Of a stretch of 64,000 nt of DNA, positions 14,492 to 60,876 are shown one piece after another. Origin of the DNA: a virus. Its lineage: Duplodnaviria; Caudoviricetes. Made by a program: the position numbers and the translations under genes. Each line of letters begins with the position of its first letter. Position 1 is the first letter of the stretch. Under the pieces are notes generated by a model. The model was not told where the DNA came from. It made no database searches and worked only from the letters and a program-made list of their open reading frames with translations. The DNA lies in IMG/VR virus record IMGVR_UViG_3300047564_001818; one strand, written 5' to 3'.

Positions 14492-14498
14492 TATTTAT
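14492..14498 (-). promoter_or_regulatory. Late promoter motif ATAAATA overlapping the upstream stop codon
   Basis: TAA of 14495-15055 forms part of ATAAATA; AAGGAG SD follows before ATG 14472. Confidence 0.6.
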
Positions 14499-26234: not shown

Positions 26235-26270
26235 ATAAATATTTTAGATACATACGTATAGTGTATTTAT
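26235..26270. promoter_or_regulatory. Face-to-face pair of late promoters (ATAAATA + at 26235-26241; ATAAATA - at 26264-26270)
   Basis: Both motifs lie in the 75-bp gap between the divergent tape-measure and gp26-like genes. Confidence 0.65.
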
Positions 26271-26282
26271 GCGGAGAACATT

Positions 26283-27152
26283 ATGGTAGATTTTAACCCA
26301 GACAACTACGAAGCCAATCCTCTGAAGAAGTATTTCAGACAACCTAAAGTCTATGTTACACTGCCTAGCAAGGGTAAGTTCTACCCACAGGGCGCAGTTG
26401 AAATGCCAGAAAACGGAGAACTGCCAATCTATCCTATGACTGCTAAAGACGAACTTACTATGAAAACTCCTGACGCACTGCTGAATGGACAAGCCACAGT
26501 GAGTGTTATTCAAAGCTGTGTGCCTGCTATTAAAAATGCTTGGGCTATGCCTAGCATTGATCTTGACGCACTGTTGATAGCTATTCGTATTGCTACCTAT
26601 GGCGATACTATGGAACTGTCTGTTAAGGTTCCAGGTATAGGCGAAGAAAGAAAATTTGATGTTGATCTGCGCAAGCTGTTAAACAAACTGGTCACAGTAG
26701 AATACGAATCAGAAATACAAATCAACAACATGACAGTAAGTGTACGTCCTTTAGTCTATAAAGAATTTACTGAAGCTAGTCTTAAAACATTTGAAGAACA
26801 GCGTATATTTGCATTGGTTAACAATGAAACTATATCAGAACAAGAAAAGCTAGCAAAGTTTAACGAAAGCTTTGCAAAGTTAACTGACTTAACAGTTAAG
26901 ACTATGAGTAAATGTGTTTCAAAAATTACTGTAAGCGATACAGTGGTTACTAATCAAAATCACATTGATGAGTTTATACAAAACGCTGACAAAGCTTTTT
27001 ATAAAGCTGTAGTTGAACATCTTGATCTACAAAAAGAAAAGTTTCAGATAGAACCTATTCAAGTACACAGCTCAGAAGAAGACATAGCCAAAGGTGCTCC
27101 TACAAATTGGACTGTGCCTATTACATTTGATCAGTCAAATTTTTTCGCATAA
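26283..27152 (+). CDS. gp26: Baseplate hub assembly protein / tail chaperone, gp26-like
   Basis: NPLKKYFRQPKVYVTLPSKG, PMTAKDEL.MKTPDALLNG, DLDALLIAIRIATYG motifs; ends ...FDQSNFFA. Confidence 0.8.
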   Translation: MVDFNPDNYEANPLKKYFRQPKVYVTLPSKGKFYPQGAVEMPENGELPIYPMTAKDELTMKTPDALLNGQATVSVIQSCVPAIKNAWAMPSIDLDALLIAIRIATYGDTMELSVKVPGIGEERKFDVDLRKLLNKLVTVEYESEIQINNMTVSVRPLVYKEFTEASLKTFEEQRIFALVNNETISEQEKLAKFNESFAKLTDLTVKTMSKCVSKITVSDTVVTNQNHIDEFIQNADKAFYKAVVEHLDLQKEKFQIEPIQVHSSEEDIAKGAPTNWTVPITFDQSNFFA

Positions 27153-27183
27153 GGATCTTGCCTCTAAGTGTAGGTGAGATCCT
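27140..27183 (+). promoter_or_regulatory. Predicted programmed -1 ribosomal frameshift signal
   Basis: In-frame heptamer T TTT TTC (27140-27146), 5-nt spacer, 12-bp stem AGGATCTTGCCT/AGGTGAGATCCT (27152-27183); the -1 frame is open and in frame with 27158-27376. Confidence 0.75.
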
Positions 27184-27376
27184 CGAAGAAGTAAAACGCT
27201 ACGAAGGTGAACAAAAGCAGTTTAAATCAGAACTGCTTAAGATCTGCTGGTACATGCGTGGCGGCGTTACTATTGAAGATGCTTATTCTCTATCATTTGA
27301 AGATAGACTGTTGATAGGCGATATAATCAAAGAGAACTTAGAAACTACGAAGAAAAGCGGAATGCCTTTCTTTTAA
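27158..27376 (+). CDS. gp51-like small ORF; probably expressed as the -1 frameshift extension of the gp26-like gene
   Basis: ICWYMRGGVT..DAYSLSFEDR..I pattern resembles gp51/tail-chaperone T-parts. The TTG start has AAGGA only 2 nt upstream and is buried in a hairpin. Confidence 0.65.
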   Translation: MPLSVGEILEEVKRYEGEQKQFKSELLKICWYMRGGVTIEDAYSLSFEDRLLIGDIIKENLETTKKSGMPFF

Positions 27377-28000: not shown

Positions 28001-28007
28001 TATTTAT
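28001..28007 (-). promoter_or_regulatory. Late promoter motif ATAAATA
   Basis: 25 nt upstream of ATG 27975. Confidence 0.65.
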
Positions 28008-41954: not shown

Positions 41955-41981
41955 TACGCAGTTTTCTAAACTAGATAAATA
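41955..41981 (+). promoter_or_regulatory. TACGCAG-N14-TAAATA late promoter for the gp6 unit
   Basis: Intergenic; AAGGA SD downstream. Confidence 0.6.
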
Positions 41982-45000: not shown

Positions 45001-45475
45001 AGTTAAGTACAAGATACTGTTCGGTAATAAAGCAAAAGAAGATCTACAAGTGAAGTTTAAGATAGTAAGAAACAGAGACCTAGTGGTTAATGAAAATGAA
45101 CTTAAAGCTGATATTATACAAGCTGTTGACAGATTTTTTGCTATTGAAAACTGGGACTTTGGAGAAACTTTCTACTTCCAAGAACTTAGCGCATACATTA
45201 TGAATCAACTTAGCCCAAAATTGTTAAGTGTTATTATTGTGCCTAGACAAGGATCACAGAGTTTTGGTAGCTTGTTTGAAATAAAATCAGAACCAGATGA
45301 AATCTTTATTAGTGCAGCAACAGTATTTGACGTAGAAATAATAGACGAACTAACAGCTACTGAGTTACAGTCTTCAGGCACAGTAATAACCAGCGTTACT
45401 ACAACTACAACCGCAGGCATAGTCAGTTCCGCAACAGCAACATCAAGCAATACTAGTGGAGGTTACAGCTTCTAA
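42005..45475 (+). CDS. gp6: Baseplate wedge protein, gp6-like (1156 aa)
   Basis: DFDNLRRTMINYL...DYIESSE...LIDMIAF, ENFLETAERRESILRLARMLAYNP, ESNDSIKQNAP..YYTQNRLITGEDY motifs. Confidence 0.88.
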   Translation: MSASDRQNRLLVAEDWKRIYQSFRNADFQSYDFDNLRRTMINYLRQNYPEDFNDYIESSEYLALIDMIAFLGQNLSFRIDLNARENFLETAERRESILRLARMLAYNPRRNQAANGLLKITTVKTTETVRDSSGVNLSGVVVRWNDQSNSNYFEQFIKILNAALPVTNSVGNPLKSENIEGVQTQKYRINATNTTVPVFPFSKNVEGVSTRFEVVSTDFDRGVIREEPPLPGTSPAFLFRDDGQGAGSTNTGFFMHFRQGKLDNGTFNVSNPTPNQVVSIDAENINNSDVWLYAVDTNGFETIQWSKLDSVEGNNIIYNSLFQGIRNVYAVTTRIGDRINLVFSDGVFGNLPSGNFKIYYRTSANRPSVIAPGAIGNVNIEIPYQGRSGSLETLTLGLRLQTTVANGTATESNDSIKQNAPATYYTQNRLITGEDYNIGPLAVSQDIIKTKAVNRISSGISRYFDLKDVSGKYSSTSLFADDGVVYKETFDTKTQFTFSTQSDVEGIIVNVVEGIISSTNLKNFYYSEFPQIIVTDLNAAWENTTEFTNQYTGFIKDIDGTAYTLGSFTANNLRLVEAGTLMRFVPPLSQSGATQYFLPNGTYTTNSEAVGATSYKWTKVAGVTGNGAQTTETGAGAVTLVDLIPDGAILEQIIPKFSRSLSDDLKTQIIDQTFAYRDYALRYNVNTRSWTLVLAADINTVDDFATGKTGDASGQNLDSSWLLYFKTDGETYTITYRNLRYVFESAEEIRFFFDSADKVYDPKTSKILRDKITVLNINKQPDANSSFTRDFVWNISDAYRDKEGYVDTRKIQVQFFDLDDDGVIDDPDLFEKLVEPNVNSQQKIVFQQRYTTSDGVEDFRYFDNINSTVKIVTNESAIVYSREVDGQVFYLFEEGVFKTLNKSRNNTTINTNYKAFVGRSGLKFHYVHVADSNYRIDPSASNIIDTYLLTRNYDTEVRKYLAGGRATEPKPESNDQLFRNYGSAINAIKSISDEIVYHPVKYKILFGNKAKEDLQVKFKIVRNRDLVVNENELKADIIQAVDRFFAIENWDFGETFYFQELSAYIMNQLSPKLLSVIIVPRQGSQSFGSLFEIKSEPDEIFISAATVFDVEIIDELTATELQSSGTVITSVTTTTTAGIVSSATATSSNTSGGYSF

Positions 45476-48400
45476 TGGCTTACAACGACAATCAAAACGA
45501 AAATCCGTTACCAGTTCCAGGCAACGAAAAACGTTCAGCATCTGATCTAATTCCAAAGTTTTTTAGAACAGAAGCTAACAGAAAGTTTTTACAAGGAACT
45601 ATTGATCAATTAATACAGCCCGGAGTTGCAGAAAAACTAAGCGGATTTGTGGGTCGTAAAACTGCCAAAGCTTTTCGTAGTACAGACAACTATGTGGGTG
45701 ATGTAAGCAGTAACAGAGAAAATTATCAATTTGAGCCTGCGGCTGTTATTAAAGACAGTCTAGACAATGTTACTTTTTATAAAGACTACAACGATTATTT
45801 AGGAGCTTTAAACTTTTTTGGAGCCAACACCAGTAATCATGATCGTCTTAACAGCCAAGAATACTATGCTTGGGACCCGCACGTTGACTGGGACAAGTTT
45901 GTAAACTTTCGTGAATATTACTGGTTACCTAATGGACCATTATCTGTACCAGTGCGCGGCCAACAAAGAACAATAGTTAGCACTTATACTGTTACAACTG
46001 TAGTAGAAGATGACAACACAGCATATATTTTTAACGACGGTTTTGTTAGAAATCCAACACTAAAACTCTACAGAGGTCAAACCTACAGATTTGAAATAGA
46101 TACCCCTGGACATCCTATTGCTTTTGCTATTAGCAGAACATTCACGCCGGGTGCTGCTATACTAACTGCAGGTAGAGAAGGCTTGCGAGCAAGTGGATTG
46201 TTTGATGGCATACTCTACGGTAACGAATATGACCAAGGCGACTTTATTATATTGCCTAGCAGCGGTAGTGTAACCTTTGAAGAAGATGAAAACGTTAGTA
46301 CATTGTATCCTGATGGTATTCGCAAACTGGGCGAAGATGGAGAAGAAGTTGCTACTGTTTACATAGAAAAAGGCACAATAGAATTTACTATTCCTGCCAA
46401 TGCTCCTGATAGACTGTACTATATTAGTAAAAACAATATTGACACTAGCGGATTGTTTAGAATTTATGATGTTGAAGAAAACACATTTCTTGATGTAGTT
46501 GCTGACATATTAGGCAAGAAAACATACCGTACTGCTGATGGTATAGAACTGTCAAATGGTATGAAACTAGAGTTTACAGGAGACGTTGCACCTGCCGAAT
46601 ACAGCAACAACTCATGGTATGTAGAAGGTGTTGGAGACAAAATACGTCTAGTCAAAGACATTGATCTTACAATTCCAGCAGCCTATTCTCAAAATAAATT
46701 AGTACCATTTGATGCTGATGCATTTGACATATTACCGTTTGCTAATGCTAGTTCATTTCCAGCTGAAAAAGATTATATTGTTATTAACAGAGCAGCACAA
46801 GATAAAAATGCTTGGAGTCGCTATAATCGTTGGTTCCACCGAACTGTAGTAGAAACTAGTTTCTTACGCAACAATCTACCTGTAAACATTGACGAAGAAT
46901 CTAGAGCCAAACGTCCTATTATTGAGTTTGAGGCTGGCTTAAAACTTTACAACTTTGGTACAGAAGCCAAGCGCGATGTTGATCTAGTAGACGTTTTTAC
47001 TAAAGATGTATTTTCTACAATAGAAGGGCAAATAGGTTACAACGTAGACGGTATTGACTTTGCTGATGGAATGAGAATATTATTTACAGCAGATACTGAC
47101 ATACTAGTACGTGGTAAAATATATCAAGTTAACTTTATACAAATAGGGAATCGTAGACAGATTAGTCTAGTAGAAACTGCTGACAGTGAACCGCTAGAAA
47201 ACGAAACTGTGTTTATTACCCAAGGCAACAAATATGCTGGCCAAACATTCTACTATAACGGCACAGATTGGCGTCTAGCACAAGAAAAAACACAGCGTAA
47301 CCAACCTCCTATGTTTGACCTTTGCTGTCCGCAAGGAAACGAATTTGCTGACACTAATGTTTTTGACAGCGCAACATTCAGAGGAACAAAACTTTTTAGC
47401 TATAGACAAGGCACTGGCACTGTTGATCCTGAACTAGGATTTCCTTTAACCTATAGAAATATTGAAAACAGCGGCGATATACTGTTCGACTTCAATCTAC
47501 TCACTGACAGTTTTACAGTTCAAACTGATAGCGGCATTGTGACTGTGACTACTGATACTGCTAATCTACGAAAATACAACAATAGAATTGACTTTGCTTG
47601 GGTTAATGGCTGGTCGAGTGTAGCATCAACTAGTAAACAATATGTAGTAAGACAGTATGTAGCAGACGAACTTGTTTTAAATAACTTTGAAATAGATGTC
47701 TATGATAAGGCAGGCAATCTTAACGACCTTAAAGTTATTGTACAAGTCAACAATAGTCTAAAAGTAAAACTACAAGATTATGAAGTTGACAGAACTGATG
47801 CCAGGGCATTTGTTCGTTTCTACAATAATCTAAACGAAGGCGATGTAGTAGTCATTAAAACTCGCAGCGCCACAGAAAAAAATGCCAACGGCTACTACGA
47901 GTTCCCGCATAACTTAGAACGCAACCCGCAAAATCAAGATGTAACAGAGTTTACGTTAGGTGAAGTTATTGATCATGTAGACAGTATGATTGAAGAAATT
48001 AACAGTTTCAGTGGTGTATTTCCGGGAACTAGCAATCTAAGAGACTTAGGCAACGTTGACGCTTACGGTAAGAAGTTTGTTAAGCACACCGGACCTATCA
48101 ACTTACCTCTCTATCACTTAACTACTAAAGATTACAATATTTTTAAAGCACTAAGATACAGCAGAGATGAATATGCCAAGTTTAAACGTGTGTTTTTAGA
48201 AACTGCTGAAACATTGGGATTTGATGGCGAAACAAGAATACATGTTGACAAAATACTAGCGGATATTAACAAGGACAAAATTAAAAGTCAGCCTTTCTAT
48301 TTCTCAGACATGATAGGTTATGGACCTCTCAACAGAATAGAATATGAAGTTTTAGATTCTAGGTCAATTTTTTATGCTCTTAGTAGAACATTCTCACTGT

Positions 48401-51400
48401 CAACAGTTAGTTCAGCTAGTGTATTAATATATCTAAACGGTCGTCAACTGATACACAGCAGAGACTACACATTTAACACAGACGGTTATGCACTGATCAG
48501 TGCAGGCCAACAAGAAGGCGACATAATCGAAATAGTTGAATACTCTACAACTGACGGTAGCTTCATTGCTCCAACTCCTTCTAAACTAGGCCTATTCCCT
48601 AAGTATGAACCTGAACTGACTATAGACGACACTTATCAAACTGAAGAACCTAGCACTACAGGCCCATACAAGATTTATGGAGAAGTTGACGTTGGTCCAA
48701 TTCTAGCAGGTACTAGAGGTTGGTTCTATCCTGTTTATACTACACGTTCGGCAGCACGAGCAGCAGATCAAGCACTTGGCGGCACAGGAGTAGTCGAATC
48801 GTATCAGTTTAAAGGTCTTAATAGAACGTTGTATATGGCAGTAAATGCCCAAAATACTAGAGGCGGCCAAGATAACATAGAAATAGATGCTTATCCTGTA
48901 GGTATACCTTTTGTGAGAGGTCACGACGGCAGCTATATTAGAGCTTATCTTGACTATAGAGATAATCTACTAATAGAACTAGAAAATAGAATATTTAATA
49001 ACATCAAGGTTGAATGGTCAGAAGACATAACAGATATCTACAGTTTCCTTGGCGGCGATTTTAGAACTAGTGAGTTCTCTAAAACTGAAATTGACAGAAG
49101 CTTGCTAACAGATTTTACCCAATGGCTGAAGTTAGTAGATAACGATTATACTGACAATTTCTTTTATGATAGACTAAACGAGTTTACATTCAACTATTCA
49201 AATGCTAATAATCCTCAAGGCAAACTGATACCGGGATTTTGGAGAGGCGTGTACAAACGTGCGTTTGACACAGACCGTCCTCACAGTCATCCATGGGAAA
49301 TGATAGGATTTGCTATTAAACCTGAGTGGTGGAACACAGTGTATGGACCTGCTCCGTACACTAGCGATAACTTAATAATGTGGAGAGACTTAGAACAAGG
49401 TATCGTAAGAGAGCCAAATAAAGAAACAGTAGTTCGTGCTAAGTTTACTAGACCTGGTCTAGTAAACTTTATTCCTGTAGATGATCAAGGCCGCTTAAAA
49501 TCACCATTGGCATCTAGTTATGTTAAAAACTTTGTACCGAGATTAAGTACAGGTAACTTTAACTTTGGAGATGAAGCACCTGTAGAAACAGCATGGCGAA
49601 GAAGTTCGCAGTATCCATTTGCTGTAATTACAAGCTTGCTCTTAAACAAGCCTGCCCAAACTATGGGCTCGGGGTTTGACGTTAGCAGAATTTCTAAAAA
49701 CTTAGCAGGTCAAAAGGTTTACGCAGCGTCGAGTAAACCAATATCAAATCTAGACATTGTATTTCCTAATACAATTTCTGACAATCAAAGAATATTAACT
49801 GCTGGTTTTGTAAACTACATTTACAATCTAGTAGCTAGTGACATACTAGCAGTATATAGTGACTATCAAACACAACTTACAAGTTTGACAAATCAGCTAG
49901 GCTTTAAACTAGGTGGATTTACTGACACACAAAAGTTAAATCTAATACTTGAAAGCAGATCGCCTGCTGCAACGTTTGAAGGCGGCGTGTTTGTACCTCA
50001 GGAAAACTATAAAATAGTATTCAATACTAGTTCTCCTGTTGATCTAGCAGTTTATAGCGGTGTAGCAGTAGAAAAGGTAGCCAACGGATTTGTTGTGAGA
50101 GGTTATAACAACGATGCTCCGTTCTTTGAATACTATGCACCTAGAACAGGTACTAGTGGTGTTTCTGTAACAGTAGGCGGAATCTCAGAAACTGCTTCAG
50201 AATGGCGATCAAATACTAGATACCAAGAAGGTCAAATTATACAAAATACCAATGCCTTCTATAGAGCAACGGCAACTTTTACGTCAGGCAACACTTTTGA
50301 CACTGATAACCTAGCACGATTACCAGTATTACCTATTGTTGGCGGAAAAACAGCAGAGTTTAAGCGAACTTTTGAAAATACACAAGTTAGATCAATACCA
50401 TACGGAACGTTACTAGCAAACAGCCAGGCAGTAGTTGACTTTTTATTAGGATATGGTGCTAGACTAGAAGATATAGGATTTGATTTTAACTTTGTAGAAA
50501 ACGAAGGTCGTGTTAACAACTGGGATTCAGCAGCAAGAGAGTTCTTGTTCTGGACCACACAAGGTTGGGCCAGCGGCACTGTGATTACAATATCGCCGGC
50601 AGCTAATAGATTCTTTTTCCAAAGAGATTATGCTGTTGTTGATGACATTTACGACAAGTTTTACAATTACAGTATACTTCAAGCAGACGGTCAATCACTG
50701 CCTAGAGAGTTTGGCAGCTTGTTAAGAGATCAAAACAGTTTTGGTTTAGAAACTGTAAACACAGACGAAGGGCTTTACTCAATAGCATTGCCCTTAGTAC
50801 AAAAAGAACACGTAGTACTACTAGACAATCGCACAATATTTAACGATATTGTTTACCAGCCTAGCACAGGCTATCGCAGAGACAGAATTAAAGTAGCAGG
50901 TTATCGTTCAGACAACTGGAACGGCGGCCTAAATATTCCTGGTTTTGTATACGACGAAGCAATAACCACAGAATGGACACAGTGGCGAGATTATGCTATA
51001 GGTAGCTTGGTTAAGTATAAACAGTTTTACTATGTGGCTACTGAAAATGTTTCCGGTAGTAAAGATTTTAATAGTAACTTCTGGTTTAGACTAAATGAAA
51101 AGCCAGCGCCAGAACTGATCACTAACTTTGATTACAGAATCAACCAGTTTACAGATTTCTATGACCTAGACACCGATGGATTTGACGCTGAACTACAGCG
51201 TATGGCACAACATTTAACAGGTTATCAAAAGCGCCAGTACCTTGCTAACATCATTAACGACGATGTTAGCCAGTACAAGTTCTATCAAGGTATGATACAA
51301 GACAAAGGTACTAAGAATGCACTTACAAAACTGTTTGGCAAGCTTAGTTCGGCCGGCGAAGAAAGTCTTGAGTTTTTTGAAGAATGGGCGCTACAAGTAG

Positions 51401-54400
51401 GACGTTTTGGTGCAGTTGATAGTGTACAGCAGATAGAGTTTAATCTTAAACAAGATAAAATGCAAGAGTCACCACAGGCTATTGAACTTGTAAACAGTTT
51501 ACCTGCTCTAAACTTTGACAAAATATATCGCATCTTGCCATTTGAGATGTACGACAAACCTGCAGATTACAATCACAAACCGTTTCCGATTAAACCGCTG
51601 GATAAAGAATATATCAGATCAGCAGGCTACGTAAATGAAGAAGACGTTTCATTCATAGTAGGCACTACAGAAGAACTCAACACAGGTGACGTAAATCTTT
51701 TAGGACTAGGTGAATATGTTTGGGTTACCGAAGTAGGTGCAACTCCTTGGGATGTTTACCAACATGTAGCTACTAATGCTAGAGTAATTGAACTAGAGGA
51801 CAACCAAGAAACTAACAGTCAAGGTATACCTCTAATGAGTCTACTACTTGACAAGTGGGCCAAGGACCACGTTCAACCTGGCGATCTAGTTGGTGTAAGA
51901 TCTGCGCAAGACAACAATCTTAATAGCATATATAAAGTCGATAGCATTGATCTAGAAGTTGTTAAAATACAAGTTCCTGCAGATAACGAAATAACACCAT
52001 TTGGCACAGCAAACTACATTTTAACTAAGCTAAGAAGTGTAAGAGCTAACGATCTAACTGGTCTTGCAGCACTAGCACAAGAAAAATTGTACAACAATCA
52101 ACGTGTATGGGTTGATGACTACAACGGTGATTGGGCTGTTCTTGAAAACACACCTGTTTATGTAAATCGTCAAACTCTATCAAATCTGTCTGATTTTGAC
52201 AGCACTGTGCAGGACTTTGGTGCAAGCATTGCAGCAACTCCTGACAACAACAACATTTTTGTAGCAGCACCAGGTGATGCCAACGGTAAGATATTCTTCT
52301 ATCGCAGAACTAAAGAAACATTCAACTTCAACGTTGATCAAGAGATAGTGCTAGATGAACCTAATCTCTATACTGTAACTAATAGTGGATTTGCATCTAG
52401 TGTCGACGTTTCAGAAGACGGCGAGTATTTAGTTGTAGGATTACCCGATGCTAGCGGTGTAAAAACTAGATTTAAAGGAAACTTTGATGCCGATGTTACA
52501 TATAACAAAAATGAAATTGTAAAATATCGTGACAGCTTGTGGAAAGCTAACAGAACTATTCTTCCACAAATTGCAACACAGTCGTTCAGCACATTTGATA
52601 CCTACGTTAACATTGCTAACAGTGCAGACGTAGATTCTACTAGCCTTACACTGCTAGTAGCAGGTGATCCAGGGCTTGAAGACAATACTGTTGATCACTT
52701 GTTAGTTCGTGCTCCTAAAGACATGTATCTAGGCACTAAAGCTGGTGATACTATAAACTTATTTTGGAACAGACGTAGTTATGCTTACCCAACACTGGAT
52801 GTGTTTCTTCCGTTTGATGGAGTAATACCTCAAATAACACCAGAGTTTTTACAACAAGATCATGAAATTATAGAAAAAATAGATCATGTATTTTTTGTAG
52901 AAACTTTTGTTACACTACCCAGTGTTGGCGATATTGTAACTACGGATACTGGTCAAGCAGAAGTGTTTTATGTAAGCACTAAAAGAGATAGTGCAGTTCT
53001 TTATCTAAAAAATACCAATGGTACATTTGATATTAGTGGCGAATTGTTTATACAAGCAGTAGACTTTGTAGGGTTTTATACAGAAGAAGACACTTACAAT
53101 ACTAGTGATACAATTGACGGTTTTTGGTATATAGAAACACCTAGCTATTCAAACAACGGTCGTTATTATGATGTAGGTCGTGGACTTGTATATGCTGATG
53201 TAAGACTACAAGGATCTACTAGATCGCTAAATGCTTACTATAATGTTCAAGATACTATAGGTGTTATAGGTAACTATGTTTTAAACAGAGATAGAGTTAG
53301 TTTTGTAACTCAGTTAGCCTATAGAGGAGACCCTGCAGGCGCAGACGGTGTGAACGGAACAGAACAAAACATACCTTCAGATCTTTGGGTTGTTAGAGCT
53401 GGAAAAATCTTTACTGATACATTGACAGCAGGAGACAGTTTTGAATTCCGCATGTATGATCTTGATAACAGAGACTTAACCAACACACTTGATCTTGCTG
53501 GTATTACTGGAAACTACACTGTTACTAACAAAACACAAACTGTCTATGATCTGTGGGACGGATACATTGATTTTGAATTTACGAGATTTGACTTTAGTGG
53601 TTTTCCTTTTGAACCTCAAATAGGAGACATAATTGAAGACGTTCAAACTCCTAGAGACGGCACAGGCGGCCTAGCTCTTACTAGCATAACAACTAGTAGT
53701 GCTGAAGTTGTTTACTTACAGCGCAACTTTAACAGCGTCAGAGTTTATGTAAAAGTTCTCTCAGGCACGTGGGCACAACAAAACAATATTGGTCGTTACG
53801 AAATAAGACGCAATGCCAACAACTCAATTAGAGGACCGGGTGATGTCGATCGTGTTATGGGAACTGTTAACTCTCCTAATAATGATATTGTGGTAGGAAC
53901 AGCACAGGTTGGTAAACTCATAGTATTCCAAAACACAGTAAACTTTACAGATACAAGAGCATGGAATGCTATTCCTCCTGTAGTAGATGAAGAATATTTC
54001 TTCTTTGACGAAACAGTAGAATCAGGTATAGCTCGTGAACCTAACACACCGTTCAGCCTCAACAAGGATTATACACAGGTCTACCACATTCCTGCTGATG
54101 AGTTTGGCACAGCAGGACCTGCAGGCGAAGGCGCAGTGGCCATATTCCGCAAACTACCAGACGGCAGATACAGGTTTAAAAAGCTGTTTGTAAGCGAATA
54201 CGGAACTGCAAACAGAGGGTTTGGTAAAACTGTTAAAATTAAACAGGTCAACAACTATTATACACTGTTTGTGTCAAGCATAGGAAATGGCAGTAGAGAT
54301 CATCCTGGCAGCGTAGAAATATTCCGTCACGGTACTAAACCTAGCGACAGTTTCCGTGGAGAATATAAACTTACTGCTTACTCACAAGGTGATATAGTAA

Positions 54401-57400
54401 TCTACAAAGATGAATACTATGTTGCTAGAAAGAATGTGTCAGAGACTGAGAACAGAATACAAGATCCAATCTATTGGAATAATATTAGCTGGCGTAGAGG
54501 AAAAGATGTCAACTACAGAGGTGACTGGGATAACAGCTACGGATATGCAACAGGAAGTATTGTACGATACAACAGTAAATTCTATCAAGCACAGACTAAC
54601 ATAGCAGCAGATGAACCATTTAATACTGCTCTATGGCAAGAACTTAGTGAGTTGATTGATTATGTAGGATATCTACCAAATCTAACTGGTGTAAATGCTT
54701 ACAATGAAGATGTGTTTGATCCAGTAACTAATATTGCACAGTTTAGCAACGCATTTGATGTAAGCAGAGATGCACAAGTTATCGTAATCACTGCTGAACT
54801 AGTTAATGCCAGCAGCACTAGTGAAACTAAGGTATTGGTATACAGAGAAACTGGCGACAAATACCTGTTGGATCAAATCATTGATGCTCCTGAATTACAA
54901 AACACAACTGATTGGGCAAGAAAAATTAGCATACGTCCGAGCGGAACACAGTTTGCTATCAGTGCTCCTTTAGATGATGTTATAAAAACTAATCAAGGTC
55001 AAGTGTATGTTTACAATCAAGTAGACGGCGAGTTTGTGTTAAGTCAAACATTAACACCGCCAAACAATGAAGAAAGTGAACAGTTTGGTTATGACATTAG
55101 TTTTGGTGAAGATAACCTTGTAGTATCTAGTTTAAATGGCGATCAAAGAATACCTGCTACTTTTGACAGCGGCGCAACTGTGTTTGACAACAACTTTACT
55201 AATTTTAGAAACATTAAACTAGATACAGGTGTAGTTTATATATTTGAAGAACTTAACAATAGATTAGTTTATAGCGAACAGTTCCGCTACGATTCTGCAC
55301 AGTCAGAGTTTGGTGAAACACTGTTAGCTAATGATAATCATGTTTATGTGGGTGTGCCGTCACATGCGTCTAACGAAACTTCAAAAGGTATCGTAGTTGA
55401 TTACAGAAAGCCAAAAGGTGTTTATGCTTGGAATACACTAAGATCAAGTGTTACACCTGTTGACATCTCTAGAATAGAAGGCATATTCCTTTACAACAAG
55501 CGTACTAATCAGATTGTTAGTTACATTGATTATGTTGATCCAATACAAGGCAAGATCCCGGGTGTTGTAGAACAAGAGTTAACTTACAAGATAGGATTTG
55601 ATCCTGCGGTATACAATGTTGGCGATTTAACTGACACAACAGTTGATCCTTCAAGATACTGGGGTGCAGAACACGTAGGCCAAACTTGGTGGAACATTAA
55701 TACTGCTAGATTTGCTTTCCCATATCAAGGATCAACTGCGTTCCAAAAGAACGAATGGAACCGTTTGATGCCAGCAGCAACTATTGACATTTACGAATGG
55801 GTAGAAAGCGATTTACTACCGAGTCAATGGGATCAGCTAGCAGACACTGATGCAGGAGTTGATAGAGCAATAAGTGGTACATCTGTTTATAGTGACGCCA
55901 AATATAGTGCTAGATTAACTTATGACGATGTTGGCCAAACTTTTAGTGTCAAATATTACTTCTGGGTACAGAATAAGAAAACTGTACCAGTAAGCAGAGA
56001 CAGACTTATTAGCACTTTTGAAATGGCTAATCTAGTTGCTAGACCAAGAGAACAAGGCTATAGATTTGTTAGCTTCCTAAGTGAAAATAAGTTTGTAGTA
56101 AACAACTTTGAAAATCTAGTAACTTCAGATGACTTAGTACTAAACATACGTTATAGCACAGGACCGCAAAAAGAACAAAACACACATGCGCAGTACCTAT
56201 TGATGTCAGACGGGTTAGACCGCAGCAGACCAGATCCTGACGTTGAACGCAAGTGGTTTGATAGCTTGATAGGTGTTGACACCAACAACAGACCTGTACC
56301 AGATCCAAACATACCGGCTGCTAAACGCTATGGTATACAGAATCGTCCAAGACAGGGCATGTTTGTAAATCGCATAGAAGCACTCAAGCAAGCTATAGAG
56401 CGTGTAAATCTTGTAATATCTCAAAATCTAATAGTGGATCAATATGATATTGACAGACTGTTCGAAAAAGAACCACAGCCATCTACAGCTACAAAATTGT
56501 ATGATCTGTCAGTTGACACTTATGCTGATCTACGATTTGTAAGTACAAACAAAGTAACACCTGCTAGACTGAGACCTGTAGTATTGAATGGTCGTTTGAT
56601 TAGAGTAGACATCACAGAAAGCGGACGCGGGTACAAAGTTGCTCCTAGCATTGAAATAGTTGGCAGCGGAGTAAATGCAGAAGTTGAACTAACAATTAAT
56701 AATCTAGGACAAGTAATTGCAGCAGAAGTAGTTAATGACGGTTCGGGATATGACGAAAACACACTAGTTAACGTAAGAAGATTCACTGTCCTAGTAAATA
56801 GTGATGAAACACTAAACGGTAAATGGGCACTTTACTCATGGAACAACAACACTAACTCATGGTTTAGAAGCAGCCTACAAGATTACGATGTAAGCTTGTA
56901 CTGGAACTATGTTGACTGGTATGCAGAAAGCTACAATCAGTTTACAAACATTGATTACGAAGTTGATGGTGCTTATCTATTGAGCAGTCTAGATGATCTA
57001 GTAGGCGATATAGTAAAGATCAAAAACGTAGGTAGTGGCGGCTGGCTGCTGTTAGAAAAAGTTGCCAGCGAGCGTACAGAAGATTATACCATAAACTATA
57101 AGACTATAGGTCGTCAAAATGGTACAATACAGTTTAAAGACAGCTTGTATGATTATTCTAAGAATACAGTCGGATTTGATAATCGCAGCTTTGACAGCTG
57201 GTTCTATGATAATAATCCTGCCAAAGAGTTGAGAATCATACTAGAAACACTGCGTGACAACATATTGATTACTGATCTTGCTGTAGAATACAATCAACTG
57301 TTTTTTGCAAGCTTGCGTTATATTCTAGCAGAACAGCCAAGAGTTGATTGGATGTTCAAAACTAGTTTTGTGAATGTTAAACATAATCTAGGTGCGCTTG

Positions 57401-60400
57401 AACAAAAGATAAATTTTGAAAACAATAAGCTACCTAGTTATCAAGCTTATGTCGAAGAAGTAAAACCATACAGCACCAAAATAAGAGAGTTTGTAAGTTC
57501 GTATAACAGTCTAGACAATACCAACAGCAGTGTAACAGACTTTGATAATGCACCTTACTATGATGAGTTGACTAAACGTATAGAAGCTAGTCGTGCAGTT
57601 ATACGTGACGGTGTATTGTTTGGTGCCAATTCTCTTGCTAACGAATATCCACGCAAGCATTGGGCGGATAACATAGGTTATGGCGTAAAAGAAATACGCA
57701 TAGCTAATCCTGGCAGTGGATATACCGGCGAACCTAAAATACGCTTAGAAAGCAGTGAAGGCACTGGGGCTACAGCTCGTGCATACTTAGGTTATGGACG
57801 CATTACTAAGATTGAAGTAACCAATCCGGGTCAAGGGTATATTACAACACCTAGAGTAGTAATAGAAGGACCGCAGAACGACACAGGCGTACCGGCCTTA
57901 GCTAGTGCCATACTAGGCAACGGACTGGTAAGAACACCTTCAATAAGAATCAAGTTTGACAGAACAGCAGGCATTTACACATTTGAAGATCTAGCCGAAA
58001 CAGAAACATTCACAGGTTCAAATGTAAGATCTGTATTTGATCTAGAATGGCCAATGGATCTTGATAATAGAAAAGTTAAAGTATATGTAAACGGCACTGA
58101 ACAGTTAAGAAGTCAATACAGCTACAAGAATGTAGACTATTTGCCAACAGCTGAATCTTTAGCTAAAGATTTTGTGTATAACAATATAACCAGCGCAGCA
58201 GGTCCTGGAACACAAAAGTTAGTAGAAGGTTACAGCTACCAAAAAGGTCGCATAACTTTTGCTCGTCCTCCTGCCAGTGGTGCAACCATAACAGTTGAAT
58301 ACTACAAGCCGTTAAGTATGCTAGGAGCTGAAGACCGTATTAGGTTTGCTTATGCTCCTGTTGCAGGTATGTTAGGTAACGATCTAGCACAGCTAATGAG
58401 CGGTGTAGACTATGGTGGTGTTGAAGTACGTGGATTTGATTTTGGCGGCCCGAGCGGATGGGATAGCCAAGGATGGTACACAGACACTTGGGATACCTTT
58501 GATAACACATTTGAAGATGAAGTATTTGTAGCAGATGGATCTACTATAACAGTCGAACTATCACAACCACTAACTAACGGCGTTGTCTACAACCTTTATA
58601 AGAACGGTGTAAGATTAGACGATCCTAGCTATAACAATGGAACACCTACAAATCCAAATGCTGTAACTAATAGCATAACAGGCAACGGTGTAACTACGGT
58701 TATCGATCTTGACGATCTAGGTATACCATTGTTAGACGGCGACATACTGATTGTAAGAAAAGTTACTAGCGACGGCAGTGTAATACCCGATCCTCTCAGC
58801 TATGATATGGCACTGTCAGGCGGTGATTTAGCATATCAAACAGCTAGAGGCGTTAACCCGGAAGAGATTGTTATAGACGGTGACGGTTTTGTTACACCTA
58901 CAACATCAAGCGGTCCAGAAGAACTAGTACCAGGACAAGTTCTTGATACACTGGATATCAAAGTCTATACTAGAGAGAGTAGCGGCCAAGGCATGATCTA
59001 TAGCCAAAGCTACATTATGAACAGTGCCGTTACTGTTTATGATCTAGGTGTTATACCCGGCAATCAAAACAGTGTGATTGTAAAACTTAACAATGTAATA
59101 TTACCAGCAGACCAGTATACTATAGACTGGACTAATCGTACAGTTGAAATATTAAACCCAATCAATGGTGCAGAACTGAATATTGTTACTGTTGGTCTTG
59201 GCACTCAAAACATCATGGACTACGGATTCTTTACATCTGTAGAAGGTCAAACTGATTATGTAACTACAGTTGAATGGACAGACAATGCTAATGTGTATGT
59301 CACCGTGAATGGTGTACAACAGGCTGTATTAGTGTTTAGAAATAGTGTTAACAATAGAACTGCATTTAGATTCGACACACCGACCGCAGCAAGTGATATA
59401 ATATATTGGGTTGTATTTGATAATAGCACAGAAGTAAACTACAGTCAAATAGTCAAAGACTCATTTACAGCCAACGGTACAGATACTCAGTTTGAACTGC
59501 TAACTGCTCCGTTCTATGCTCAGCCTAACGAACACAACATACTTGTTAAAGTAGGCAACTCAATACTAAACGCAGGATACAATCTACAGTTTACTATACC
59601 AAGCACGGGCGACAGAGAATATGCACTAGAAACATTCCAACAGCCTGTAGGTTCACTTGATGTGTCTGAAGTGAAGGTATTTTTAAACGGCATAGAGATT
59701 ACAGCTCCAGTACAGTGGCGTTTAGATATTAATAACAGTTCAGTTATATTATCAGATGAAGTAGGTGTACCTGGAGATCTTTTAGAATTTTATGTAATTG
59801 CAGACGGCGACTATAGAATTTCTAATAAAACTGTAACACTTAATACTGCACCTGCTAATGGTACTGTAGTTGAGATATATCAGTTTAGCAATCATGATTT
59901 GTTGGGCATTGAAAGAATTAACTATGATGTGGTTGCCAGAACAACATTAATACCAGAAGACATACAGTATGTAACCTACAACAGACTAACAGTAGGAGAA
60001 ATCACACTAAGATCACCAGCAGTGGATGCTGAGTATGTTTGGGTAGCAGTAAACGGCGAACTGTTAACACCTAGTGTTGACTACTACGTAACCAATGACA
60101 GAACTAAACTAAGACTAGTACGCACCCCTGCTGCTAATGATGTGATTGATGTAATACATTTTACAACACCTGTAAATGTAGCGAGATTTGCATATCGTCA
60201 GTTTAAAGATATGTTGAACCGTACGCACTTCAAGCGTCTAGATACCGCAGCAACAGCACTAGCACAACCGCTGAACTACTACGATCTAAGAATAGAACTA
60301 GTTGACGGAACTGCATTGGCTGAACCAAACAAGGGTCAAAACATGCCGGGAATCGTTTGGATTAACAGTGAACGTATTGAATACTTTGTAAAAGAAGGCA

Positions 60401-60876
60401 ACACACTGCGTCAGTTGCGTAGAGGTACACTGGGCACAGGCACACCGGCAACACATCCTGCAGGTGAAAAGGTGTTTGACCAAAACGTAGGAAAAACTGT
60501 GCCTTACAAAGATCAAACACTGGTACAAAACTTTGTAGCCGACGGTGTAACAGACACATTTGCTGTTAGTTTTGGAGTAAACAACGCTAACGAAATAGAA
60601 GTATTTGTAAGTGGAGTTAGATTAAGAAAAGCAGCAATCACAGTGTTTGATCCTAATCTTGCTCTAGACAGCCCTGCAGGTGATGTAGAACAACCTGCAG
60701 AGTTTACAGTTGAAAACGGAAACGTTGTACTAGATACAGTGCCTGCCGATGAAGCTAAAATCACTGTTGTCAAAAAGATAGGTCAAACTTGGACTAGATT
60801 GGGCGAATCGCTGTCAACTGCGGAAAATAGCATAGCAAGATTCTTGCGTGCAGGCACAACTGAGCTACCAGAATAA
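45475..60876 (+). CDS. Giant 5133-aa baseplate/virion protein (gp7 position), multi-domain
   Basis: Uninterrupted 15.4-kb ORF coupled to gp6 (TAATG). It contains a cupredoxin-like NPTLKLYRGQTYRF module, CBM-like repeats, FG-GAP-like propeller repeats (FGASIA, FASSVDVS, FGYDIS, FGETL) and GSGY/GRGY Ig-like repeats. Confidence 0.85.
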   Translation: MAYNDNQNENPLPVPGNEKRSASDLIPKFFRTEANRKFLQGTIDQLIQPGVAEKLSGFVGRKTAKAFRSTDNYVGDVSSNRENYQFEPAAVIKDSLDNVTFYKDYNDYLGALNFFGANTSNHDRLNSQEYYAWDPHVDWDKFVNFREYYWLPNGPLSVPVRGQQRTIVSTYTVTTVVEDDNTAYIFNDGFVRNPTLKLYRGQTYRFEIDTPGHPIAFAISRTFTPGAAILTAGREGLRASGLFDGILYGNEYDQGDFIILPSSGSVTFEEDENVSTLYPDGIRKLGEDGEEVATVYIEKGTIEFTIPANAPDRLYYISKNNIDTSGLFRIYDVEENTFLDVVADILGKKTYRTADGIELSNGMKLEFTGDVAPAEYSNNSWYVEGVGDKIRLVKDIDLTIPAAYSQNKLVPFDADAFDILPFANASSFPAEKDYIVINRAAQDKNAWSRYNRWFHRTVVETSFLRNNLPVNIDEESRAKRPIIEFEAGLKLYNFGTEAKRDVDLVDVFTKDVFSTIEGQIGYNVDGIDFADGMRILFTADTDILVRGKIYQVNFIQIGNRRQISLVETADSEPLENETVFITQGNKYAGQTFYYNGTDWRLAQEKTQRNQPPMFDLCCPQGNEFADTNVFDSATFRGTKLFSYRQGTGTVDPELGFPLTYRNIENSGDILFDFNLLTDSFTVQTDSGIVTVTTDTANLRKYNNRIDFAWVNGWSSVASTSKQYVVRQYVADELVLNNFEIDVYDKAGNLNDLKVIVQVNNSLKVKLQDYEVDRTDARAFVRFYNNLNEGDVVVIKTRSATEKNANGYYEFPHNLERNPQNQDVTEFTLGEVIDHVDSMIEEINSFSGVFPGTSNLRDLGNVDAYGKKFVKHTGPINLPLYHLTTKDYNIFKALRYSRDEYAKFKRVFLETAETLGFDGETRIHVDKILADINKDKIKSQPFYFSDMIGYGPLNRIEYEVLDSRSIFYALSRTFSLSTVSSASVLIYLNGRQLIHSRDYTFNTDGYALISAGQQEGDIIEIVEYSTTDGSFIAPTPSKLGLFPKYEPELTIDDTYQTEEPSTTGPYKIYGEVDVGPILAGTRGWFYPVYTTRSAARAADQALGGTGVVESYQFKGLNRTLYMAVNAQNTRGGQDNIEIDAYPVGIPFVRGHDGSYIRAYLDYRDNLLIELENRIFNNIKVEWSEDITDIYSFLGGDFRTSEFSKTEIDRSLLTDFTQWLKLVDNDYTDNFFYDRLNEFTFNYSNANNPQGKLIPGFWRGVYKRAFDTDRPHSHPWEMIGFAIKPEWWNTVYGPAPYTSDNLIMWRDLEQGIVREPNKETVVRAKFTRPGLVNFIPVDDQGRLKSPLASSYVKNFVPRLSTGNFNFGDEAPVETAWRRSSQYPFAVITSLLLNKPAQTMGSGFDVSRISKNLAGQKVYAASSKPISNLDIVFPNTISDNQRILTAGFVNYIYNLVASDILAVYSDYQTQLTSLTNQLGFKLGGFTDTQKLNLILESRSPAATFEGGVFVPQENYKIVFNTSSPVDLAVYSGVAVEKVANGFVVRGYNNDAPFFEYYAPRTGTSGVSVTVGGISETASEWRSNTRYQEGQIIQNTNAFYRATATFTSGNTFDTDNLARLPVLPIVGGKTAEFKRTFENTQVRSIPYGTLLANSQAVVDFLLGYGARLEDIGFDFNFVENEGRVNNWDSAAREFLFWTTQGWASGTVITISPAANRFFFQRDYAVVDDIYDKFYNYSILQADGQSLPREFGSLLRDQNSFGLETVNTDEGLYSIALPLVQKEHVVLLDNRTIFNDIVYQPSTGYRRDRIKVAGYRSDNWNGGLNIPGFVYDEAITTEWTQWRDYAIGSLVKYKQFYYVATENVSGSKDFNSNFWFRLNEKPAPELITNFDYRINQFTDFYDLDTDGFDAELQRMAQHLTGYQKRQYLANIINDDVSQYKFYQGMIQDKGTKNALTKLFGKLSSAGEESLEFFEEWALQVGRFGAVDSVQQIEFNLKQDKMQESPQAIELVNSLPALNFDKIYRILPFEMYDKPADYNHKPFPIKPLDKEYIRSAGYVNEEDVSFIVGTTEELNTGDVNLLGLGEYVWVTEVGATPWDVYQHVATNARVIELEDNQETNSQGIPLMSLLLDKWAKDHVQPGDLVGVRSAQDNNLNSIYKVDSIDLEVVKIQVPADNEITPFGTANYILTKLRSVRANDLTGLAALAQEKLYNNQRVWVDDYNGDWAVLENTPVYVNRQTLSNLSDFDSTVQDFGASIAATPDNNNIFVAAPGDANGKIFFYRRTKETFNFNVDQEIVLDEPNLYTVTNSGFASSVDVSEDGEYLVVGLPDASGVKTRFKGNFDADVTYNKNEIVKYRDSLWKANRTILPQIATQSFSTFDTYVNIANSADVDSTSLTLLVAGDPGLEDNTVDHLLVRAPKDMYLGTKAGDTINLFWNRRSYAYPTLDVFLPFDGVIPQITPEFLQQDHEIIEKIDHVFFVETFVTLPSVGDIVTTDTGQAEVFYVSTKRDSAVLYLKNTNGTFDISGELFIQAVDFVGFYTEEDTYNTSDTIDGFWYIETPSYSNNGRYYDVGRGLVYADVRLQGSTRSLNAYYNVQDTIGVIGNYVLNRDRVSFVTQLAYRGDPAGADGVNGTEQNIPSDLWVVRAGKIFTDTLTAGDSFEFRMYDLDNRDLTNTLDLAGITGNYTVTNKTQTVYDLWDGYIDFEFTRFDFSGFPFEPQIGDIIEDVQTPRDGTGGLALTSITTSSAEVVYLQRNFNSVRVYVKVLSGTWAQQNNIGRYEIRRNANNSIRGPGDVDRVMGTVNSPNNDIVVGTAQVGKLIVFQNTVNFTDTRAWNAIPPVVDEEYFFFDETVESGIAREPNTPFSLNKDYTQVYHIPADEFGTAGPAGEGAVAIFRKLPDGRYRFKKLFVSEYGTANRGFGKTVKIKQVNNYYTLFVSSIGNGSRDHPGSVEIFRHGTKPSDSFRGEYKLTAYSQGDIVIYKDEYYVARKNVSETENRIQDPIYWNNISWRRGKDVNYRGDWDNSYGYATGSIVRYNSKFYQAQTNIAADEPFNTALWQELSELIDYVGYLPNLTGVNAYNEDVFDPVTNIAQFSNAFDVSRDAQVIVITAELVNASSTSETKVLVYRETGDKYLLDQIIDAPELQNTTDWARKISIRPSGTQFAISAPLDDVIKTNQGQVYVYNQVDGEFVLSQTLTPPNNEESEQFGYDISFGEDNLVVSSLNGDQRIPATFDSGATVFDNNFTNFRNIKLDTGVVYIFEELNNRLVYSEQFRYDSAQSEFGETLLANDNHVYVGVPSHASNETSKGIVVDYRKPKGVYAWNTLRSSVTPVDISRIEGIFLYNKRTNQIVSYIDYVDPIQGKIPGVVEQELTYKIGFDPAVYNVGDLTDTTVDPSRYWGAEHVGQTWWNINTARFAFPYQGSTAFQKNEWNRLMPAATIDIYEWVESDLLPSQWDQLADTDAGVDRAISGTSVYSDAKYSARLTYDDVGQTFSVKYYFWVQNKKTVPVSRDRLISTFEMANLVARPREQGYRFVSFLSENKFVVNNFENLVTSDDLVLNIRYSTGPQKEQNTHAQYLLMSDGLDRSRPDPDVERKWFDSLIGVDTNNRPVPDPNIPAAKRYGIQNRPRQGMFVNRIEALKQAIERVNLVISQNLIVDQYDIDRLFEKEPQPSTATKLYDLSVDTYADLRFVSTNKVTPARLRPVVLNGRLIRVDITESGRGYKVAPSIEIVGSGVNAEVELTINNLGQVIAAEVVNDGSGYDENTLVNVRRFTVLVNSDETLNGKWALYSWNNNTNSWFRSSLQDYDVSLYWNYVDWYAESYNQFTNIDYEVDGAYLLSSLDDLVGDIVKIKNVGSGGWLLLEKVASERTEDYTINYKTIGRQNGTIQFKDSLYDYSKNTVGFDNRSFDSWFYDNNPAKELRIILETLRDNILITDLAVEYNQLFFASLRYILAEQPRVDWMFKTSFVNVKHNLGALEQKINFENNKLPSYQAYVEEVKPYSTKIREFVSSYNSLDNTNSSVTDFDNAPYYDELTKRIEASRAVIRDGVLFGANSLANEYPRKHWADNIGYGVKEIRIANPGSGYTGEPKIRLESSEGTGATARAYLGYGRITKIEVTNPGQGYITTPRVVIEGPQNDTGVPALASAILGNGLVRTPSIRIKFDRTAGIYTFEDLAETETFTGSNVRSVFDLEWPMDLDNRKVKVYVNGTEQLRSQYSYKNVDYLPTAESLAKDFVYNNITSAAGPGTQKLVEGYSYQKGRITFARPPASGATITVEYYKPLSMLGAEDRIRFAYAPVAGMLGNDLAQLMSGVDYGGVEVRGFDFGGPSGWDSQGWYTDTWDTFDNTFEDEVFVADGSTITVELSQPLTNGVVYNLYKNGVRLDDPSYNNGTPTNPNAVTNSITGNGVTTVIDLDDLGIPLLDGDILIVRKVTSDGSVIPDPLSYDMALSGGDLAYQTARGVNPEEIVIDGDGFVTPTTSSGPEELVPGQVLDTLDIKVYTRESSGQGMIYSQSYIMNSAVTVYDLGVIPGNQNSVIVKLNNVILPADQYTIDWTNRTVEILNPINGAELNIVTVGLGTQNIMDYGFFTSVEGQTDYVTTVEWTDNANVYVTVNGVQQAVLVFRNSVNNRTAFRFDTPTAASDIIYWVVFDNSTEVNYSQIVKDSFTANGTDTQFELLTAPFYAQPNEHNILVKVGNSILNAGYNLQFTIPSTGDREYALETFQQPVGSLDVSEVKVFLNGIEITAPVQWRLDINNSSVILSDEVGVPGDLLEFYVIADGDYRISNKTVTLNTAPANGTVVEIYQFSNHDLLGIERINYDVVARTTLIPEDIQYVTYNRLTVGEITLRSPAVDAEYVWVAVNGELLTPSVDYYVTNDRTKLRLVRTPAANDVIDVIHFTTPVNVARFAYRQFKDMLNRTHFKRLDTAATALAQPLNYYDLRIELVDGTALAEPNKGQNMPGIVWINSERIEYFVKEGNTLRQLRRGTLGTGTPATHPAGEKVFDQNVGKTVPYKDQTLVQNFVADGVTDTFAVSFGVNNANEIEVFVSGVRLRKAAITVFDPNLALDSPAGDVEQPAEFTVENGNVVLDTVPADEAKITVVKKIGQTWTRLGESLSTAENSIARFLRAGTTELPE

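Follow-up and report, generated by a model that had tools for sequence, protein, structure and literature searches.

In phage lambda, the single gene G gives a major short protein and a minor long one, GT, through a -1 slip of the ribosome at an X_XXY_YYZ sequence near its 3' end; the gene adjoins that of the tape measure protein and has a role in tail assembly. Such a -1 frameshift is reportedly conserved in tail assembly chaperone genes, an observation ascribed to Xu, Hendrix and Duda in 2004, and the E/E+E' pair of phage P2 is said to be comparable. In phage T4, the 208-aa gp26 and the 249-aa gp51 come from genes that are divergent from each other, gene 25 being the one that follows gene 26. 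Both gp26 and gp51 match the whole of the Pfam model PF12322 and are therefore paralogues. The present work deals with a gp26-like gene carried by a stretch of 64,000 nucleotides of viral DNA (IMG/VR record IMGVR_UViG_3300047564_001818; the whole stretch is hereafter called the window). T4 has two PF12322 genes and no frameshift, whereas the window has one gene, which very probably yields a short and a long product by a programmed -1 ribosomal frameshift. We put the probability of this reading, which is derived from sequence comparison, at about 85%.

The 289-aa product of the 0 frame matched PF12322 (T4_baseplate) with an E-value of 1.3e-12 and 48.4 bits, above the curated gathering cut-off of 24.5 bits, and phrog_150 (baseplate hub) with an E-value of 3.7e-15. 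The label gp26-like, given in an earlier note on this DNA, is thus justified. No second PF12322 gene is present in the 64 kb, and whole-genome searches revealed one copy each in Atu_ph07, PA5oct, RaK2 and a complete 338-kb genome which is a relative of the window phage. By direct reading, the open reading frame (ORF) ends with AAT TTT TTC GCA TAA, and the first T of the heptamer T_TTT_TTC is the third position of the Asn codon. The heptamer is thereby read as X_XXY_YYZ, the phase required for tandem -1 slippage. The -1 frame is translated as F-F-R-I-R-I-L-P-L-S-V-G-E-I-L... and is free of stops up to the TAA at 27374-27376. The anatomy set out in the earlier note (ORF end, heptamer, 5-nt spacer, 12-bp stem, open -1 frame, products of 289 and 364 aa) was confirmed in every detail. 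A sequencing error in the T run was considered and ruled out, because six T are present in 71 independent assemblies, including finished isolate genomes, and because DNA contigs of three other sequencing runs cover the site without any indel. The runs include one RNA library, which covers a small share of the stretch and whose contigs miss the heptamer.

A blastn search of the locus against 50,697 phage records gave no match, so that relatives were reached through protein searches only. These protein-guided searches yielded 25 IMG/VR loci, 37 metagenome loci and 94 isolate phage records. Seventy-one loci were examined at their 3' ends: the 25 IMG/VR loci, 36 metagenome loci, nine isolate phages (Atu_ph07, Phosso, PA5oct, 121Q, RaK2, GAP32, Serratia BF, XaC1 and SCTP-2) and the window. 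Although amino-acid identity to the window falls as low as about 28% among related loci, the in-phase heptamer is kept in 71/71, with TTC as the last codon in 69 and TTA in two. The run counts exactly six T at every locus and is never longer, and the -1 frame is open over 72-79 codons in all of them. The earlier note had asked whether the heptamer and the continuity of the -1 frame would be found in orthologues, and both are conserved in every one examined.

The codon preceding the run varies (AAT, CAT, AGT, CGT or GAT, for N, H, S, R or D) but its third base is always T. Given x-Phe-Phe, the codon usage of these genes predicts NNT TTT TTC with a chance of about 0.07 per independent lineage. 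Across a dozen deep lineages, protein-level conservation alone is therefore insufficient, and the pattern, far beyond chance, indicates that selection acts on the nucleotides of the heptamer. The two loci with TTA (L027 and L081) are in agreement with this: the change from TTC-G to TTA-G replaces Phe by Leu in the 0 frame and keeps the Arg of the -1 frame (CGA to AGA), and T_TTT_TTA is itself a classical slippery heptamer. On the two sides of the heptamer, different frames are conserved. The -1 frame shows the motif F-F-R-x-(R/K/Q)-(I/L)-L from its first codon and remains conserved as protein over the 71 loci, at identities down to 34%, whereas the 0-frame residues past the heptamer are unconserved and reach a stop 1 to 11 codons later. 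The alignments thus indicate that the frame under selection switches at the heptamer.

If the extension belongs to a long form, proteins in which it is joined in frame to a PF12322 domain would be compatible with the predicted fusion. An extension profile made from 15 alleles (alignment A1) was searched against 1.84 billion representative proteins and matched 495 of them at E <= 1e-3. Among the best 150 matches, 20 are proteins of 319-351 aa that carry the extension at the C-terminus, in frame after PF12322, and all 20 exceed the PF12322 cut-off. Their junction, ...L-D-x-S-x-x-F-R-x-(K/R)-I-L-x-x-x-E-E-I..., is the predicted trans-frame junction, as seen for instance in P0224, P0233, P0237, P0245 and P0249. 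With a hidden Markov model (HMM) built solely from these natural in-frame long forms, the 0-frame piece of the window aligned with HMM positions 3-258 (E = 5e-59) and the -1 piece with positions 259-336 (E = 9e-28), so that the second match abuts the first. The AlphaFold model of the in-frame protein P0233 is confident throughout (pLDDT 91, pTM 0.87), which suggests that the extension packs on the N-domain. Fold searches with the model of an in-frame homologue gave baseplate hub and hub assembly proteins in BFVD, with E-values down to 2.7e-17, and no match in AlphaFold Swiss-Prot or, by Foldseek, in the Protein Data Bank (PDB). VIA-align against 48,161 chains returned generic helical hairpins only (Z <= 8.3) and no tail-chaperone fold.

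The genes for the in-frame long forms directly follow a short PF12322 gene of 287-294 aa, and this tandem pair diverges from an 829-aa gene, in the same position as in the window. In one such relative (L044) the short gene has lost the heptamer (AAT TTT ATG). In another (L043) the short gene (820-1704) ends with TCT TTT TTC AAT GAC TAA, and the -1 frame closes after one codon; this heptamer looks like a relic left after the long form gained its own gene. In a maximum-likelihood tree of the N-domain, both short genes nest inside the frameshift clade of the window with 100/99 support, and the two-gene lineages therefore seem to descend from a frameshifting ancestor, the second gene now supplying the long form. 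The position of T4 in this tree is unreliable because of long branches. The L043 heptamer also gives some substance to the idea that the window signal is itself a leftover of a split gene, or a chance arrangement, followed by an unexpressed ORF. We consider this extremely improbable, since a frame of 78 codons that is open and conserved as protein at the 71 loci, with a profile that finds several hundred proteins, is not what a relic would leave. A side observation was made on a two-gene relative (contig of GCA_015689235.1), whose T4-type portal gene contains an intein (Portal_T4 interrupted by Intein_splicing; 1015 aa).

The downstream ORF was listed as a separate gene of 72 aa starting at the TTG 27158, and gene callers and annotators have likewise called a separate gene of 58-89 aa in relatives. 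It could be translated by re-initiation after the stop of the gp26-like gene, without any fusion: the window TTG is preceded by an AAGGA, and an ATG lies at or next to the stop in Atu_ph07, Phosso, 121Q and Serratia BF. Only 2 nt separate the AAGGA from this start codon, which lies hidden within the 5' arm of the stem, as the earlier note had pointed out. Moreover, the start is conserved neither in kind nor in place. The first ATG, GTG or TTG of the extension is found anywhere from codon 3 to codon 38, in many loci at 14-38, and the PA5oct extension has none in its 75 codons; the called lengths of the small gene, from 58 to 89 aa, result from this variability. Conservation of the peptide extends ahead of the candidate starts, right to the heptamer. 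Independent initiation would also leave unexplained both the invariant in-phase heptamer and the constant T at the third position of a variable codon, and the natural in-frame fusions show the domain working while attached to PF12322, the P0233 model being a single confident unit. These data argue that independent initiation is not the conserved mechanism, and it does not account for the small protein in PA5oct or at the many loci where the first start comes late; we regard it as a very unlikely explanation of the locus. The 72-aa ORF had no Pfam or PHROG family match. None of the 12 isolate records inspected, from 10 phages (L001-L002, L028-L034 and L042), connects the two reading frames. The extension figures there as a hypothetical protein of 40-76 aa with various internal starts, except for PA5oct and RaK2, whose records lack it. 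Neither the frameshift nor the small ORF is mentioned in the proteome papers on PA5oct and CBB.

Downstream of the heptamer, RNAfold predicted a stem-loop in the window, and the 70-nt stretch has a folding energy of -19.4 kcal/mol (z = -3.9 versus shuffles). In the window clade (16 alleles), 86.5% of the cells of the 12-bp stem pair, versus at most 49.5% with slid partners. In three pairs of the stem both partners are exchanged (columns 22/35, for instance, go from G-C to C-G), and the covariation score is matched by 7/500 shuffles. In most lineages a hairpin begins 4-7 nt past the heptamer. The stem is kept in the window clade, with some double changes, and is weak or different in other lineages. 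The hairpin is a likely stimulator of frameshifting, as judged from its position and predicted fold.

The same 364-aa fusion would be obtained if RNA polymerase added one U on the T6 run, and the conserved element is indeed a homopolymer run. One of the papers citing Vladimirov et al. describes their mechanism as two separate genes (PMC10885494). At none of the 71 loci does the run depart from six T before a C or A, and the conserved structure is located 4-7 nt past the heptamer, in the geometry of a ribosomal -1 frameshift. Transcriptional slippage in bacteria usually requires some 8-9 identical bases, with any stimulatory hairpin placed upstream, in the nascent RNA. With an exact six-T run and a downstream structure, a ribosomal mechanism fits better than transcriptional slippage, which we hold to be improbable, if slightly less so than independent initiation.

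The comparison with T4 was extended to both of its PF12322 proteins. As in the window, a PF12322 gene of T4 is divergent from the tape-measure gene cluster. T4 gene 26 ends with GAG TTC TTT GAG TTA CTA TAA, in which Phe-Phe is kept and the sequence is not slippery. T4 gp51 consists of the PF12322 domain followed by a C-terminal extension of about 48 aa, which means that T4, too, has a short and a long form. BLASTP of the window extension against T4 gp51 gave nothing meaningful. By hhalign, the extension aligned with the gp51 C-terminus in one register, with P = 0.0027 and then P = 4e-4 with a broader profile, and 1/200 column shuffles reached the score. Structure prediction for a gp51 homologue and for the long form placed four helices in the same order past the second zinc-ribbon hairpin, helix two of the long form having 14 extra residues; the window extension exceeds that of T4 gp51 by about 27 aa. 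The small ORF, which had been described as gp51-like, is therefore no gp51 gene, and what can be retained of that description is its match (hhalign P = 4e-4, helix order) with the C-terminal extension that separates gp51 from gp26. On balance, we favour homology between the two extensions, with some reserve, and genes 26 and 51 of T4 are probably its counterparts of the short and the long form, respectively. Unlike T4 gp26 and gp51, the proteins of the window clade are without the four zinc-ribbon Cys. A separate comparison of the window gene product (26283-27152) with L001, L028-L034 and P0224-P0366 showed that the two Cys pairs (CxxC...CxxC), which never vary among the in-frame long forms and which T4 gp26 and gp51 share with the RaK2-, PA5oct- and Atu_ph07-type genes, have been lost in the window clade.

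The comparative evidence thus gives strong support to the programmed -1 frameshift proposed in the earlier note, and the following mechanism can be put forward. Most ribosomes would read AAT TTT TTC GCA and stop at TAA, giving the short form. A fraction would slip back by one base, with two Phe-tRNAs on UUU UUC (27141-27146) re-pairing on UUU UUU, and a pause at the hairpin 5 nt downstream probably aids this slip. The slipped ribosomes would go on for 76 more codons in the -1 frame and produce the 364-aa long form, whose added C-terminal domain, about 75 aa in length, would be helical. These two forms would then be the pair that other relatives encode by tandem genes, and both may serve the central hub and the adjoining tape-measure-like protein as assembly chaperones.

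Several observations weigh against this scheme or parts of it. The slip itself, and its efficiency, are deduced from the sequence. The hairpin is not conserved in all lineages, being weak in the L009-L016 clade and in RaK2, and its lower pairs are invariant and sit in conserved codons, so that the covariation support, which appears genuine, is modest. In the isolates Atu_ph07, Phosso, 121Q and Serratia BF, the stop of the 0 frame overlaps with, or directly adjoins, a -1-frame ATG, from which coupled re-initiation could give a free small protein. As to T4, the link between the extension and the gp51 C-terminus has moderate support: a local whole-family profile alignment (A2 versus A4) stops in the N-domain, short of the C-termini, and PF28602, the family of the gp51 C-terminus, is listed by precomputed Pfam on gp51 homologues and absent from the listings of the in-frame long forms.

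The window gene shares with lambda G the production of two forms from one gene, the kind and place of the slippery sequence, the vicinity of a tape-measure-like gene and, presumably, a role in tail assembly. In contrast to lambda, it is divergent from that gene and not directly upstream on the same strand; this divergent arrangement is also found in RaK2, PA5oct, 121Q, GAP32 and L044. The window short protein is about twice the size of gpG. Tail-chaperone Pfam families gave no match to the window and in-frame proteins, even at E <= 10. Given the different gene order, the lack of a chaperone Pfam match and the lack of a structural match, the likeness to G/GT is one of logic only. The G/GT comparison drawn in the earlier note is therefore kept as an analogy, and a homology with G and T finds no support in the Pfam and PDB searches. 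A chaperone function, with the tape-measure-like protein as a client, is suggested by the position of the gene and by the roles proposed for T4 gp26 and gp51 (PMC9024508).

The earlier note had supposed that such a frameshift was undescribed in T4-like phages, which is probably wrong. According to citing papers, the principle was very probably published by Vladimirov, Gautam and Davidson (Virology 2022;566:9-15, doi 10.1016/j.virol.2021.11.003). In one of them, some T4-like phages are stated to have one short chaperone gene and one longer fusion gene, with no frameshifting, and this is attributed to Vladimirov et al. 2022 (PMC10885494); another mentions poly-T slippery sequences as known in short-form genes of T4-like phages (PMC12846349). 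The loci examined here show this very pattern. Direct literature searches on gp26, gp51 or the baseplate hub together with frameshift found nothing relevant. It is conceivable, though doubtful, that the published work covers only T4 and its close relatives, that the frameshift is unreported in RaK2-like phages, PA5oct, Atu_ph07-like phages, SCTP-2 and freshwater or marine giant phages, and that one-gene and two-gene encoding have been interchanged more than once. Novelty may lie in how widely the signal is spread among RaK2-like, PA5oct, Atu_ph07-like and aquatic giant phages, in its absence from annotations and in the evidence that one-gene and two-gene encoding have replaced one another.

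The features of the locus are collected in Table 1.

Table 1. Positions of the frameshift locus and adjoining elements in the window.
Feature	Position	Strand	Basis or remark
Tape-measure-like protein, 838 aa	23691..26207	-	divergent from the gp26-like gene; likely chaperone client
ATAAATA motif	26235..26241	+	42 nt upstream of the gp26-like start; resembles a T4 late promoter
Second ATAAATA copy	26264-26270	-	faces the tape-measure-like gene
gp26-like baseplate-hub assembly gene, 289-aa short form	26283..27152	+	PF12322, phrog_150
Predicted trans-frame product, 364 aa	26283..27376 (join 26283..27146 with 27146..27376)	+	junction ...D-Q-S-N-F-F-R-I-R-I-L...
Slippery heptamer T_TTT_TTC (X_XXY_YYZ)	27140..27146	+	in phase; direct reading
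-1 frame extension, 78 codons then TAA (27374-27376)	27140..27376	+	C-terminal domain of the predicted long form
5-nt spacer between heptamer and stem	27147..27151	+	sequence reading and RNAfold
12-bp stem-loop, likely frameshift stimulator	27152..27183	+	RNAfold: 27152-27163 with 27172-27183, two G-U pairs
Listed 72-aa ORF from TTG, probably no independent gene	27158..27376	+	TTG inside the stem; no conserved start in relatives

Other genes of the window encode a T4-type portal and major head protein, gp46/gp47-like nuclease subunits, a gp5-like hub/lysozyme protein and baseplate wedge proteins. A search of sequencing runs showed the DNA in freshwater metagenomes. Given this T4-type gene set, the freshwater occurrence and the 338-kb relative, the source is an uncultured freshwater giant phage related to T4. 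The divergent 838-aa protein had no family match in Pfam and PHROG scans. Its role as a tape measure is suggested by the divergent neighbours in relatives: the RaK2 neighbour bears a record note saying that it is similar to a tape measure protein, that of PA5oct is a structural protein by mass spectrometry, and that of L044 is the 829-aa gene.

Between the gp26-like and tape-measure-like genes lie two back-to-back copies of ATAAATA, the core of the T4 late promoter TATAAATA. The motif occurs 13 times in the window (2705-60879), less often than the 23 copies expected by chance, and yet most copies precede a gene start by 20-110 nt and point the same way as that gene, with further examples at 14492-14498 (-), 28001-28007 (-), 33202-33208 (-) and 41975-41981 (+). 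From their placement, these copies are probably late promoters. Elsewhere, a 149-aa ORF at 28807-29256 (-), between the structural genes and the gp46-like gene, resembles by eye a GIY-YIG homing endonuclease, and a SegE_GIY-YIG gene stands close to the corresponding locus of a related contig. In the tail/baseplate region, a 1156-aa ORF is followed by a single ORF of 5133 aa at 45475-60876 (+), whose product may be a giant fibre or structural protein.

Phage records never join the extension to the hub gene, and many of them would be corrected by a simple annotation rule that looks, in PF12322 genes, for an in-phase TTTTTTC close to the 3' end and then a -1 frame open over about 75 codons. The finding is well supported and makes a useful annotation fix and an attractive evolutionary case. 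The two-gene relatives, together with the relic heptamer, suggest that a recoding signal and a gene duplication are interchangeable; if the switches between one gene and two have indeed been repeated, they would offer a rare chance to study the gain and loss of a recoding signal. The finding supports the view that T4 gp26 and gp51, long termed hub assembly factors, are the short and long forms of one chaperone system, and that myoviruses of this lineage need both forms, from one gene or from two.

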